Counted from the stretch's first letter, positions 8,000 to 55,557 are shown. The stretch: 64,000 nucleotides of DNA from Bacteroidales bacterium (GCA_017412645.1 JAFPWX010000023.1:3770-67769); one strand, 5' to 3'. The notes: generated by a model not told the origin, from the letters alone. Program-made: numbers and translations.

Positions 8000-9183
8000 A
8001 CGTCCATAAGTATCCTTCTCCCCTTTGGGAGGAGATTGTTACAACGGCTCCCCAGGTTTTTGGCGAGCCCAAGAGGATGTCCGTGATATGCTACAATAAT
8101 CAGGCCTTGTGGAGTGCCTTCGGGCAGACGGAGAGCGTCGCGGTGGAGATAACGCAGAGCATCCTGAAGCGACAGCTCCACAACGGGATATTCGGGGCGA
8201 TATCCTATTGCGAGGACGCGGTCGAATTCTTCAATCTTCATTACGCCAGGCACTACAGAAAAAGCTGCACTCTTCAAGCCGGGAGCAGAGGTGCCGTTTG
8301 CGGAAGTTTTTTGCGTCAGGCCCCGTGCGGCCGCGGTAGCGGAGCAAACGGTAGCCTCTGGCCCGGCGTTCTGGTGCGCCGTTTTTCTCAGGGCCCCGAC
8401 CCACTGGCCTTCGCCTGGGACTTCACCCGCCTTGAGGAGATTGCCGTGGGCGGTCAGACGAACTCCGTACTGCGGGAATTCGTCTTCCGGGGCGAAGATT
8501 TCGCCTCCCAGGGTTTCAGCAGCCCATGCCAGATTGCCGTCGTTCTCCGCCTCTTCGTAGGTGCAGGTGGAGTAGACCAGGATGCCGCCTTCGCGAAGAG
8601 CTGGCCAGACATCGGCGAGGATCCTCCGCTGACGGGCCGCGCACATCTCCACCAGCTCCGGACTCCAGTCCGCCACGGCCTTGGGGTCTTTTCGGAACAT
8701 GCCTTCGCCGCTGCACGGAACGTCGGCCACGATTATGTCGAAGCAACTCGGCATCCGCTGCCCGAAAACGGCGGGGTCGGCGCTGGTAACCTGCACGTTC
8801 GGGTCACCCCATCGGGCAACGTTATCGCGAAGCACTCCGGCGCGGGCTTTCATCACCTCATTCGAAATCAGCTGGAACTTATCTCCGAGGGCTTCCCTGA
8901 GGCTCGCCGCCAGGTCGGTCGTCTTGCCTCCCGGGGCGGCGCAAAGGTCGAGCACCCTTACACCCGGGCCGAACTCACTTAAATGCTTGCGGAAGATGTG
9001 CCCCGGGTACATGGCGGAGCTGTCCTGGACATAGTAGCAGCCGGCGTGAAGAAGAGGGTCGAGGGTGAAGTTCGGACGCTCCTGCAGGATACGGCCGTAA
9101 GGGCTCCACGGAACGGGAGCGCCATCCGGGCCTTCACAGCCCTTGAAGGGATTCAGCCGTATTGCAGTACTTGGCGCTTCCAT
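7996..9183 (-). CDS. RsmB/RsmF/NOP2-family rRNA cytosine-C5 methyltransferase
   Basis: YYVQDSSAM, VLDLCAAPGGKT, DVPCSGEGMFRK, YSTCT motifs; C-terminal PUA-like region; contains a 30-aa low-complexity segment encoded by a palindrome. Confidence 0.9.
   Translation of the reverse strand: MEAPSTAIRLNPFKGCEGPDGAPVPWSPYGRILQERPNFTLDPLLHAGCYYVQDSSAMYPGHIFRKHLSEFGPGVRVLDLCAAPGGKTTDLAASLREALGDKFQLISNEVMKARAGVLRDNVARWGDPNVQVTSADPAVFGQRMPSCFDIIVADVPCSGEGMFRKDPKAVADWSPELVEMCAARQRRILADVWPALREGGILVYSTCTYEEAENDGNLAWAAETLGGEIFAPEDEFPQYGVRLTAHGNLLKAGEVPGEGQWVGALRKTAHQNAGPEATVCSATAAARGLTQKTSANGTSAPGLKSAAFSVVPGVMKIEEFDRVLAIGYRPEYPVVELSLQDALRYLHRDALRLPEGTPQGLIIVAYHGHPLGLAKNLGSRCNNLLPKGRRILMDV
8278..8367 (-). 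repeat. 90-bp intragenic imperfect palindrome, exactly 30 codons, in the RsmF-like gene
   Basis: Coding-strand arms GCCGGGCCAGAGGCTACCGTTTGC ... GCAAACGGCACCTCTGCTCCCGGC. Confidence 0.6.
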
Positions 9184-44564: not shown

Positions 44565-45518
44565 ATGCGCTACAAAATCACTCTTTCATACGACGGAGCC
44601 CCCTTCTGCGGCTGGCAGAGGCAGCCCGACGCGCCGAGCGTTCAGGAAGCTCTCGAAACCGCGCTGCAAACCCTTCTGGGAGAGCCTGTTCCGGTTACCG
44701 GCGCAGGCCGCACCGACACCGGTGTCAGTGCCGTGGATTATGTGGCGCATTTCGACGCTCGGCAGGAGCTCGACGCAGGTCATCTTGCCTGCAAATTAAA
44801 TGCCATCCTGCCCGTCTCGATAGCCGTTTCCAAGCTTGAGCCGGCCGCGCCGGACTTCCATGCCCGCTTCGACGCCCGCAAACGCACATACACTTACTTT
44901 CTGCACCGCTGCAAAGACCCGTTCCTGGCCACCCGTTCGTATTTTTACGGCTACCCGGAAGTGGATTTCGAAGCCATGAACAAGGCGGCCGCGATGCTTG
45001 TCGGCACCCACGATTTTTCCTGCTTCCAGAAGGTCGGATCGGACAACAAAACCACCACCTGCACCGTCTTCGAAGCTGGCTGGCAGCCTTACGCTCCGGC
45101 CGGAGGGACCCTTGCCTCCGACCCGGTTCGCGGATCCACCGCTCATCCCTCCCAGCCTGGCGGCGGGGCCCCTCGAAGCGAAGGAAACCGGGGTCCCCGA
45201 AAATCTGCTGATTTTTGGGGTGCTCACGAGGGTGGCACGCCTCTCGGAGGCAAGGTCCCTCCGGCCTCGCCGCAATATTGGTTCTTCCGGATTTCGGCCG
45301 ACCGCTTCCTGCGGAACATGGTTCGGGCCATAGTGGGAACGCTGTTGGAGGTAGGTCGCGGCCGCCGCAGCCTCGAGGAGTTCGCCGCGCTCATCCTCCC
45401 GCCGGCTCCTAATGCCTCCGGTGCCGGAATCGCCCCGAAAAACTCGCCGTCGCGCCGTTGTCTTGCAGGCGAGTCCGCCCCCGGCCACGCCCTCTTCCTC
45501 ACCGCCATAGAGTACTGA
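44565..45518 (+). CDS. truA: tRNA pseudouridine(38-40) synthase carrying a ~56-aa in-frame insertion
   Basis: YDGAPFCGWQ, GAGRTDTGV (catalytic Asp), FHARF, HDFSCF, ADRFLRNMVRAIVGTL, APGHALFL. Confidence 0.92.
   Translation: MRYKITLSYDGAPFCGWQRQPDAPSVQEALETALQTLLGEPVPVTGAGRTDTGVSAVDYVAHFDARQELDAGHLACKLNAILPVSIAVSKLEPAAPDFHARFDARKRTYTYFLHRCKDPFLATRSYFYGYPEVDFEAMNKAAAMLVGTHDFSCFQKVGSDNKTTTCTVFEAGWQPYAPAGGTLASDPVRGSTAHPSQPGGGAPRSEGNRGPRKSADFWGAHEGGTPLGGKVPPASPQYWFFRISADRFLRNMVRAIVGTLLEVGRGRRSLEEFAALILPPAPNASGAGIAPKNSPSRRCLAGESAPGHALFLTAIEY
45098..45266 (+). mobile_element. Palindromic MITE/RPE-like element inserted in frame in truA
   Basis: Arms GGCCGGAGGGACCCTTGCCTCCGA (45098-45121) and TCGGAGGCAAGGTCCCTCCGGCC (45244-45266) pair perfectly apart from one bulged base; inner hairpin CCCCGAAAATC-TGCT-GATTTTTGGGG (45195-45220). 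Confidence 0.8.
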
Positions 45519-54438: not shown

Positions 54439-54648
54439 ATGAAACAGTTCACCCTTGACAAGCAGAACAGGAAGATCGGAGGCGTTTGCGCCGGTCTTGC
54501 CAAGTACTTCGGAATCGATGTGACCATCATCAGGGCTGCGTTCCTTTTCGCACTGCTCTGCCTCTCCTCCGGATTCTGGCTCTACGTGATCCTCTGGATC
54601 ATTGCGCCCGCCGAGGATGAATCCGCACCGACCGTCCATTACGAATAG
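54439..54648 (+). CDS. PspC-domain membrane protein
   Basis: KIGGVCAGLAKYFGIDVTIIR...YVILWII. Confidence 0.88.
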   Translation: MKQFTLDKQNRKIGGVCAGLAKYFGIDVTIIRAAFLFALLCLSSGFWLYVILWIIAPAEDESAPTVHYE

Positions 54649-54669
54649 GCTCGTTTGATAGCGGATTCG

Positions 54670-55557
54670 ATGGCGGAGCTCCTCACATCGGCGCAGAACC
54701 CCAAATTCAAGCGCCTGGTCGCCCTGCGTGAAAAGTCGCGGTTACGCCGCGACGAGGGCGTGTTTGTGGTGGAGGGACGCCGCGAACTGGAGCACTGCGT
54801 GGAGGCGGGGTTCGAGGTGGAGACGGTGTTCGTGTGCCCGGAGATAGCCGACTCCGCTGCGGGGGCTACTCCCCCTTCGGGAGTTCGTCCTTCGGACTCA
54901 CCCCACCACCCCTCCGGGGCGGTCCCCCCGCTTCCGTGCCGCGGGTGTTACGTCCCTCAGGGGGAGTACCCCCGCAGCTTAGGGCCCAAAACCTTCGAAC
55001 TGAGCAAGGAATTGTATGCCAAGGTGGCTTACAGGGAGGGAACGGAAGGAGTGATGGCGATTGTTAAGAGCCGCGAGCTGCGGCTGGATGAGCTGCAGTT
55101 AGGCGACAAGCCGCTGGTAATGGTGCTGGAAGGAGTGGAGAAACCCGGCAACCTCGGGGCGGTTCTGAGGAGTGCCGACGCGGCCGGGGCAGACGCCGTG
55201 ATCGTCTGCGACCCGCTTACCGACCTCTGGAACCCCAATCTAATCCGCGCCAGCATCGGAGCGGTGTTCACCGTGCCCACCGTATGCTGCTCTTCGGCCG
55301 AGGCCATCGCGTGGCTGAAGGCACGCGGGATACGCATCCTCACCGCCCAGCTGCAGGATTCGTCCGTCTATTACGACGCCGACATGACAGGCCCCACCGC
55401 CATCGTGATGGGCACCGAAGCCACCGGTCTCACAGATCCCTGGCGCCAGGCCGCCGATGCCCACGTGCTTATACCGATGCTGGGCCGTCTGGACTCGCTG
55501 AACGTGAGCGTCTCCGCCGCCATTCTCCTGTATGAGGCAGTCCGGCAGAGGCAGTAG
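54670..55557 (+). CDS. TrmH/SpoU-family RNA 2'-O-methyltransferase with a 41-aa in-frame insertion
   Basis: EKPGNLGAVLRSA, VMGTEATGL, IPMLGRLDSLNVSVSA. Confidence 0.92.
   Translation: MAELLTSAQNPKFKRLVALREKSRLRRDEGVFVVEGRRELEHCVEAGFEVETVFVCPEIADSAAGATPPSGVRPSDSPHHPSGAVPPLPCRGCYVPQGEYPRSLGPKTFELSKELYAKVAYREGTEGVMAIVKSRELRLDELQLGDKPLVMVLEGVEKPGNLGAVLRSADAAGADAVIVCDPLTDLWNPNLIRASIGAVFTVPTVCCSSAEAIAWLKARGIRILTAQLQDSSVYYDADMTGPTAIVMGTEATGLTDPWRQAADAHVLIPMLGRLDSLNVSVSAAILLYEAVRQRQ
54856..54978 (+). mobile_element. Palindromic MITE/RPE-like element inserted in frame in the TrmH gene
   Basis: Arms GCTGCGGGGGCTACTCCCCCT (54856-76) and AGGGGGAGTACCCCCGCAGC (54959-78) pair perfectly apart from one bulge; 123 nt = 41 codons on codon boundaries; inner GTCC-TTCG-GAC hairpin. 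Confidence 0.8.

Follow-up and report, generated by a model that had tools for sequence, protein, structure and literature searches.

The palindromic insert in the TrmH gene

We examined a 64,000-nt stretch of DNA (the window; GCA_017412645.1 JAFPWX010000023.1:3770-67769) from a Bacteroidales metagenome-assembled genome (MAG) of 1.8 Mb in 26 contigs, and in particular a 123-nt palindromic element (54856..54978) which lies in frame within a gene for a SpoU/TrmH-family RNA 2'-O-methyltransferase. The host open reading frame (ORF), assigned by Pfam, spans 54655..55557 on the + strand and has a likely start at ATG 54670; the element, its arms and core, and the truA element described below are given without strand. 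The catalytic domain of the encoded protein is intact, with a complete match to PF00588 SpoU_methylase (residues 150-289, profile positions 2-142 of 142, 1.7e-37). The N-terminal substrate-binding domain is split by the insert: the match to the MRM3-like domain PF22435 (residues 11-64, 9e-15) ends at residue 64 (position 53 of the 84 in the profile), exactly at the point of insertion.

The element contributes 41 codons, translated as AAGATPPSGVRPSDSPHHPSGAVPPLPCRGCYVPQGEYPRS (across the insert junction the protein reads, for example, ...EIADSAAGATPPSGVR...). A first-pass annotation had described a 123-bp in-frame palindrome adding exactly 41 amino acids, and the ORF, the translation and the complementarity of the arms all bear this out. 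The left outer arm, GCTGCGGGGGCTACTCCCCC (54856..54875), pairs with the right outer arm, GGGGGAGTACCCCCGCAGC (54960..54978), with full complementarity except for a single bulged C in the left arm. The outer ~13 nt of the left arm are specific to this locus, and the inner CTCCCCC is common to other copies of the same family (family A, below). The sequence GCTGCGGGG from the left arm region is also found in P0021, a short TrmH allele. Fold energy against shuffled sequences had been set beforehand as a check, and the 123-mer folded better than every one of 200 dinucleotide-preserving shuffles in each of four cases: as RNA, the + strand gave -73.8 kcal/mol (z -4.95) and the - strand -83.1 kcal/mol (z -7.23), and with DNA parameters the values were -37.5 kcal/mol (z -4.65) and -42.2 kcal/mol (z -6.0), respectively. 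Inner TTCG loops are present at 54873-54881 and 54887-54897, roughly as annotated. When both strands of window positions 54600-55200 were compared with the Rfam 15 covariance models, nothing matched at E <= 10.

An AlphaFold model of the TrmH protein, built with 78 homologues, had a mean predicted local distance difference test score (pLDDT) of 80.7. Residues 66-105, corresponding to the insert, were the only stretch with pLDDT <50, and values outside the insert were >90. The insert is predicted from this model to be the sole disordered stretch of TrmH, lying between a helix and a strand.

Alleles of TrmH that lack the core of the element are 93-97% identical outside the site (P0012, P0020, P0021 and P0028). 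Together with the break in the PF22435 match, this identifies the segment as an insertion. The suggestion that it occupies a permissive site, and that only frame-preserving copies are kept in genes, was also supported, as all copies found in this genome are in frame inside ORFs, and so are about 70-78% of those elsewhere. Comparison with orthologs gave a divided answer: other families of the order are without the insert, but in several related uncultured species TrmH has this core at an identical position (P0019, P0022, P0026, P0041, L124 and L127). The TrmH site is either old or a recurrent hot spot.

Related copies in the same genome

Searching the genome with the 123-mer by blastn identified three further copies, which matched positions ~14-111 only. 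They lie in frame in the genes for DNA polymerase I (PolA), the ATP synthase gamma subunit (AtpG) and an M28 peptidase, the last on the opposite strand. A profile search with nhmmer detected 6 copies in all, the additional two belonging to a sister family, family B, and each lying in a further ORF. Three more distant copies, in MutL, a PAP2 protein and TruA, form family C. The family-C element in truA (45098..45266) is 169 nt long, GC-rich and in frame, with a 13-bp perfect outer stem, GGCCGGAGGGACC...GGTCCCTCCGGCC, and a CACGAGGGTGGCACG motif near its 3' end; it is not reached by nhmmer with the A/B profile. The copies in MutL (G000 C8:57142-57314) and the PAP2 protein (G000 C6:6067-6171) encode the same type of peptide as that in TruA. 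A generic inverted-repeat scan, which served only for spotting the GC-rich family-C copies, was non-discriminating, with 93 loci in the genome and 65 in the shuffled control. In other strains, family C was also observed as an alternative occupant of the AtpG site (P0132, P0134 and P0137).

The genome thus holds at least 9 related copies (four of family A, two of family B and three of family C), of which 9/9 are in frame inside ORFs; no intergenic copies were found in this genome. The element is therefore a palindromic repeat of ~100-150 bp present several times per genome, and its hosts TrmH, PolA, AtpG, M28 peptidase, MutL, TruA and PAP2 are unrelated, otherwise intact genes with Pfam domains intact on either side. 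Pfam confirmed the identity of the host gene for five of the copies (TrmH, M28 peptidase, AtpG, PAP2 and MutL). The PolA and MutL copies fall in inter-domain linkers. Separately, a 90-nt palindrome in an RsmF/NOP2-like gene (window 8278-8367) contains no core motif of families A-C.

A covarying core within locus-specific stems

The four family-A copies of the genome share cores that are 88-95% identical; in the window this core covers 84 nt (54876..54959). The outer 10-13 nt of the arms are unrelated among these copies, and each arm is complementary to its own partner. The palindrome of the first-pass annotation is thus real, but the repeated unit is not the 123-mer: it is an 84-90-nt, multi-hairpin core with a few inner stem pairs, within a whole element of 90-170 nt and several hairpins. 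Both ends of the window copy do coincide with codon boundaries, but the family does not obey such a rule: among the 51 and 45 intragenic copies of two independent samples (below), palindrome lengths are distributed evenly over 0, 1 and 2 mod 3. We accordingly rejected the whole palindrome, as a multiple of 3, as the inserted unit.

From its 5' end, the window core consists of the TTC / GGGA inner stem, a GTCC-TTC-GGAC hairpin, CCCCACC and a CCCC-TCC-GGGG hairpin, followed by GGTCCCCCC, a CCCGC...GCGGG helix crossed by a second helix, and TCCC / TCA. Hairpin 1 (54887..54897) reads GTCC-GAA-GGAC on the - strand, and in the M28 copy its stem is GCCC/GGGC in the alignment, a compensatory change. 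The ACC of the near-invariant junction motif CCCCACC (54901..54907) pairs with the GGT of the next motif and closes hairpin 2. The signature motif GGTCCCCCCGCTTCCGTGCCGCGGGTG (54921..54947) supplied the search pattern GGTCCCCCCKCTN{6,7}CCGMGGGYG.

An alignment of 59 copies showed the same order throughout, from a variable outer stem through inner stem P1, hairpin 1, CCCCACC, hairpin 2 and GGTCCCCCC to the crossed helices. Family A has GGGA/TCCC as P1 and family B has AACC/GGTT, and the ACC/GGT pairs (columns 50-52/79-81) are kept in 59/59 copies. The helix CCCKC/GMGGG is crossed by a strongly covarying helix NN.TGCC/GGCANN; from the alignment, the crossed helices represent either a pseudoknot or two alternative folds. 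The window copy has mismatches in the crossing helix, where CGTGCC faces GTTACG, which gives its last hairpin a chimeric appearance. Across the 59 copies, 90.9% of the cells assigned to pairs were able to pair, against 38-48% when the partners were slid. The covariation score was 0.376, against 0.14 in shuffles, and was reached by 0/500 shuffles; four helices of the core covary.

Mismatches within stems were strongly skewed, with 60 Y.Y (T.C/C.T) against 5 G.A/A.G on the + strand (p = 5e-13), although these counts include a recurrent core-adjacent position and the events are not independent. The + strand Y.Y mismatches are G.A pairs on the opposite strand, where the loops read CGAAG, which we take to be a d(GCGAAGC)-type GAA triloop, unusually stable in DNA. 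Because of this mismatch excess and these loops, the strand selected to fold is probably the purine-rich one, with its GAA triloops and tandem G.A pairs; in the window this strand is antisense to TrmH. The TTCG loops of the first-pass annotation are present, but the opposite strand is probably the one selected to fold. A role for them as UUCG tetraloops in mRNA is unlikely because copies face both ways relative to their host genes. A comparison of G:U with A:C taken from alignment columns was rejected, as families A and B are out of register in P1; symmetric stem scoring of G:T against A:C (13 vs 19 and 15 vs 13) showed no asymmetry, and the contrast that carries information is Y.Y against R.R.

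Outside the core, the outer arms average ~19 nt and are ~95% complementary. [quoted passage not shown] In a first set of copies, arms with a 9-mer in common were found in 7/2415 pairs, of which five were at loci that are evidently orthologous and two had a single such 9-mer; a second set contained 2/1653 such pairs. Ordinary divergence of the stems from a common terminal repeat was rejected, since cores that are 88-95% identical are accompanied by outer stretches of ~10-13 nt that are unrelated. The bulged C of the window copy (54866) is also seen in the PolA and M28 copies, so that 3/4 family-A copies of the genome carry it in the left arm at equal distance from the core; the arm sequence around it is locus-specific.

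Strain-level turnover and inversion

TrmH proteins 93-98% identical to that of the window outside the insertion site displayed a whole series of states. The same insert was present in P0001 and P0002, and short or empty forms in P0020, P0021 and P0028. In P0012 a deletion between the CCCC repeats of the two arms has left a 24-nt stem-only hairpin, an example of microhomology deletions leaving such hairpins. The core is reversed in P0009, P0016 and P0050, and a family-B element occupies the same site in P0013 and others. P0005 is an A/B chimera joined at the shared GGTCCCCCC, P0003 has a further insert nested in its last hairpin loop, and P0054 and P0074 have tandem partial copies. Alleles of AtpG and PolA showed the same repertoire of empty, stem-only, reversed, other-family, nested and chimeric states.

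The cleanest pair of filled and empty alleles, P0013 and P0020, differ by a 120-nt insert, and their flanks by 2 of 123 nt. CAGTCCG, with which the insert's right arm ends, repeats in inverted form the host's CGGACTG, already there to the left of the empty site. In this one clean pair there was no direct target-site duplication; the inverted 7-nt copy of the left flank was found instead.

Inversion in place was clearest in MiaA. Between two species (L115/L117), the cores are 90/90 identical but inverted, and the flanks are 81-84% identical; the stems are alike except for two compensatory double changes. At the divergence of these flanks, the probability of 0 changes in 90 nt is ~3e-8. Flipped cores between homologous stems were also found in PolA (G000, this genome, against P0244) and in GcvP (L059/L069). 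MiaA, PolA and GcvP each therefore hold a coding segment that is bounded by inverted repeats and found in both orientations, as in invertons. In orthologous pairs generally, cores were 0.89-1.00 identical, against 0.63-0.84 for coding flanks, with one exception.

Further variation was observed at these genes. The nested piece of TrmH P0003 (L051), ~36 nt encoding SGSP(E/A)(S/N)ASSLGCT, also occurs in the last hairpin loop of AtpG P0125 and could be a distinct subfamily or the result of gene conversion between the loci. AtpG in the species group has at least 3 further strain-variable indel sites (alignment A2 columns 55-75, 225-255 and 320-340), one of them with GSGNPAAS-type tandem repeats. 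At the palindrome site of TrmH in other species of the genus, an unrelated insert with the tandem repeat APRDDNNEG x3 is found in L018 (G012), and inserts of 50-70 residues in L017 and L021 (G014 and G009); one of these two includes FVLRTHP, which is the family-A core in another frame. A second strain-variable TrmH site, at about residue 140 of the window protein, holds a low-complexity insert of ~70 residues (WTLADLDVMLSSRGNAGEN...QGARQQ...) in P0004, P0007, P0030, P0032, P0037, P0040, P0046, P0049, P0050 and P0058, independently of the state of the palindrome site.

Distribution and genomic placement

The core was present in 5/24 genomes of the same genus and in none of 400 other genomes spread evenly over the order (236 genera). 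In GTDB species genomes the signature motif matched at least 120 stretches, and almost all of these came from uncultured Bacteroidales MAGs of ruminant or hindgut samples (cattle, buffalo, goat, deer, yak and horse), among them Candidatus Cryptobacteroides and one Muribaculaceae MAG. At least 120 further stretches were found in metagenome contigs, in records without source names; every genome involved is a MAG or a metagenome contig. The carrier genus is Cryptobacteroides, together with relatives; we take this genus to belong to family UBA932 in GTDB. The motif was absent from all of 2.9 million viral contigs, and carriage by phage was rejected on these grounds.

Elsewhere than in this genome, 96 copies were intragenic, defined as lying well inside a spanning ORF of at least 200 codons (51/77 and 45/58 in the two independent samples). 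They were sense to the host gene in 21 cases and antisense in 30 in the first sample, and in 20 and 25 cases in the second. The same element DNA is read in several frames to give unrelated peptides, for example in RNase R of G016, and is read antisense in the M28 peptidase and in many TrmH, PolA and MiaA alleles. Host sites named from conserved sequence motifs, not Pfam, recurred across genomes in TrmH, MiaA, PolA, GcvP, IspE, IspH, RsmB/F, TsaA and KsgA. The remaining copies were intergenic, typically 5-15 nt past stop codons and often between convergent genes. In one genome, two family-A copies 335 nt apart (L010/L012; G016 C37:790-879 and 1125-1214) lie amid other short repeats (translated, EQNDPSCTPDPFRGLSG...), and instead of a gene this region may represent mixed repeat elements in an array.

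Candidate mobility enzymes

The genome encodes four ORFs of 290-385 aa that resemble REP-associated tyrosine transposases (RAYTs; REP, repetitive extragenic palindrome), with HUH and Tyr motifs and weak matches of 27-31 bits to PF01797 (Y1_Tnp) and NF047646 (REP-associated tyrosine transposase). The four loci are G000 C8:63647-63835, C17:46631-46894, C6:3780-4049 and C17:71003-71140. Across the genus, PF01797 matches were similarly weak (20-42 bits, ORFs of 290-385 aa). Some of these ORFs are followed by repeated hairpins of their own, such as GGAGACGTCCCGAAAAATGGGACGTCTCC, which occurs twice after the C8 gene. Only 3/80 element loci have a RAYT-like gene within 4 kb. A linked transposase is thus unsupported, with weak matches, different hairpins and few loci nearby, although a link in trans is possible. 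The arrangement of REPs and REPtrons, a single tagged hairpin beside a RAYT gene, was not found.

Interpretation of the element

We consider it likely that the 123-nt segment belongs to a selfish, non-autonomous family of palindromic DNA repeats of rumen and hindgut Bacteroidales. In the best reading this is an undescribed family of the kind represented by Rickettsia palindromic elements (RPEs), with locus-specific stems and flip-flop inversion; we found no published description of such elements for this clade. A multi-hairpin core of ~85-90 nt is clamped at each locus by a long, nearly perfect stem specific to that locus. Copies in genes would persist only where the frame is kept, no stop codon is introduced and the site is a permissive loop or linker, and those that persist would be translated as a disordered loop rich in Pro, Gly, Ser and Arg. 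The element may act as folded single-stranded DNA of the purine-rich strand, spreading by copy-choice or template switching, or with an HUH/RAYT-like enzyme acting in trans. Its stems might originate or lengthen when the adjoining host flank is copied by snap-back, and be kept perfect by arm-to-arm conversion, and flips could result from recombination or template switching between the two arms. Pre-existing palindromes are unlikely as the targets for first colonisation of coding sites, but possible for re-colonising stem-only remnants and for terminator hairpins.

Several observations weigh against this interpretation. Neither a transposase, nor a conserved terminal repeat, nor, in the one clean filled/empty pair, a target-site duplication was found, and the RAYT-like HUH genes are weak matches with different hairpins, near only 3/80 loci. 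The proposed snap-back origin of the stems is inferred from one clean filled/empty pair and one weaker pair, and the mismatch skew behind the choice of folding strand is subject to the non-independence noted above. The repeated use of sites in several species and the conservation of cores above that of their flanks could mean function and vertical descent instead of mobility.

A bolder possibility, which we raise only tentatively, is that the core is a new bacterial element acting as single-stranded DNA, which copies itself into new sites, builds a snap-back clamp there, flips, and seeds invertons in essential genes. The clamp would then explain why a different but perfect stem is present at every locus, and CCCCACC, GGTCCCCCC and GAGGGTG would be the recognition or catalytic part. 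The genes so seeded would include TrmH, MiaA, PolA, AtpG and MutL across this clade of rumen bacteria.

Function at the level of the nucleic acid seems improbable to us, but it is the main rival. The core could be a selected, structured nucleic acid or switch, either an intragenic inverton offering two loop peptides or a cis-acting site for replication, recombination or regulation. Its conservation above coding flanks (90/90 in MiaA), the invariant unpaired motifs and the covarying helix that crosses another would all be expected of such a site, as would the filling of the same sites in many species and the flipped states with conserved stems in MiaA, PolA and GcvP; intragenic invertons are, moreover, documented in Bacteroides (PMC10028968). 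However, near-identical strains are without the core, copies decay through partial deletion, and no invertase is linked to the element. Peptides from different frames and orientations are wholly unlike, disorder is predicted for the insert, and the high similarity of cores is equally predicted by recent spread or gene conversion. Selection on the protein is a far weaker contender. A linker or loop module spread by recombination, with its palindromy incidental, would account for the recurrence of the peptide PPSGVRPSDSPHHP.G.VPPL..RGCYVPQGE in TrmH, PolA, AtpG and RsmG, but not for the unrelated peptides produced in other frames (RNase R in G016) and from the other strand (M28 peptidase, and alleles of TrmH, PolA and MiaA). 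Nor would it account for the intergenic copies, or for conservation that tracks base pairing and not codons.

It is similarly hard to believe that the palindrome is an RNA processing signal and that the insert is removed like an intron or intein, leaving the 41 residues absent from the protein. The very stable RNA fold of either strand and the UUCG-type loops of family A would suit such a signal. However, the frame is open through 9/9 copies in this genome and 96 elsewhere, which counts against removal because splicing would not require it; roughly one copy in two lies antisense to its host gene, Rfam gave no match at E <= 10 as described above, and 41 aa is far too small for an intein. An artefact of assembly or binning can be practically dismissed: the MAG is in 26 contigs and palindromes can confuse assemblers, but the same insert was found in independent ENA, NCBI, JGI and Logan assemblies of many samples, and its allelic variants form a coherent series.

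Relation to known repeats and significance

The closest analogues of these Bacteroidales repeats are the RPEs, palindromic repeats of 100-150 bp in several families without a transposase of their own (Ogata et al. 2000, 2002; reviewed in PMC10969869). Many RPEs lie in frame in unrelated housekeeping genes and are translated as extra loops compatible with the protein fold (PMC10969869). All of these features are shared by the Bacteroidales element, including the use of surface loops and linkers, as indicated by the TrmH model and the linkers of PolA and MutL. The likeness is one of kind, as the host belongs to another phylum and the element can only be an analogue; no similarity in sequence was seen, with no search aimed at it. 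It also departs from the RPEs in several respects: its terminal arms are locus-specific, with repetition confined to the inner core; this core contains four helices that covary; copies are inverted in situ; and strain alleles turn over rapidly, in contrast to the description of RPEs as relics in decay (PMC6649704).

A REP consists of one GC-rich hairpin, 20-40 bp long and tagged with GTAG or CGTC; most REPs are located just downstream of genes, some lie within genes for replication and repair, and HUH tyrosine transposases are believed to act on them in single-stranded hairpin form (Di Nocera et al. 2013, PMC3733652). The Bacteroidales element resembles them in its GC-rich hairpins, some of them intragenic, and in the presence of RAYT-like genes in this genome, but it is a multi-hairpin structure of 90-170 nt that does not adjoin those genes. 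With MITEs such as Correia/NEMIS, ERIC, Nezha and the Coxiella QMITE it shares small size, non-autonomy, multiple copies and occasional in-frame fusion to host ORFs; what defines MITEs, however, is the possession of conserved terminal inverted repeats, a parent insertion sequence (IS) and target-site duplications. Neither of the first two was seen here, nor was a direct duplication in the one clean filled/empty pair. The GC clusters and double-hairpin elements of fungal mitochondria are likewise GC-rich, palindromic and mobile and can occupy coding regions in frame, but they are organellar, much shorter and of a different architecture.

Two further systems resemble single aspects of the element. 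The coding palindromes of nematomorph mitochondria are also locus-specific, nearly perfect inverted repeats within coding sequence, for which template switching has been proposed, with arm-to-arm conversion keeping the arms perfect (PMC6649704). However, no repeated core is common to them, and conserved host residues are encoded by each of the two arms. The intragenic invertons of Bacteroides are segments between inverted repeats that lie wholly within a gene, occur in either orientation and recode the protein (PMC10028968), but they are flipped reversibly within a population by invertases. In our elements flips were seen only between strains or species, and the flipped segment is itself a repeat element.

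On present sequence evidence, the departures from RPEs, MITEs and REPs are the locus-specific stems, the structured covarying core and the in-place inversion; the stems and the inversion are not mentioned in the descriptions of these three classes that we consulted. For annotation and strain typing the inserts have practical consequences, as they break domain annotations, inflate the apparent strain diversity of marker genes and are likely sites of assembly and polymerase chain reaction (PCR) errors. Protein-coding palindromic repeats have hitherto been treated as a peculiarity of Rickettsia, and the Bacteroidales case is independent and much more dynamic. Its hosts are abundant, uncultured Bacteroidales of the rumen and hindgut, for which public metagenomes already hold hundreds of copies, with alleles that range among strains from empty and filled to flipped, nested and trimmed. 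The movement of such elements, the tolerance of proteins to them and their possible creation of new protein segments, which were hard to test in Rickettsia, are now testable in these bacteria.

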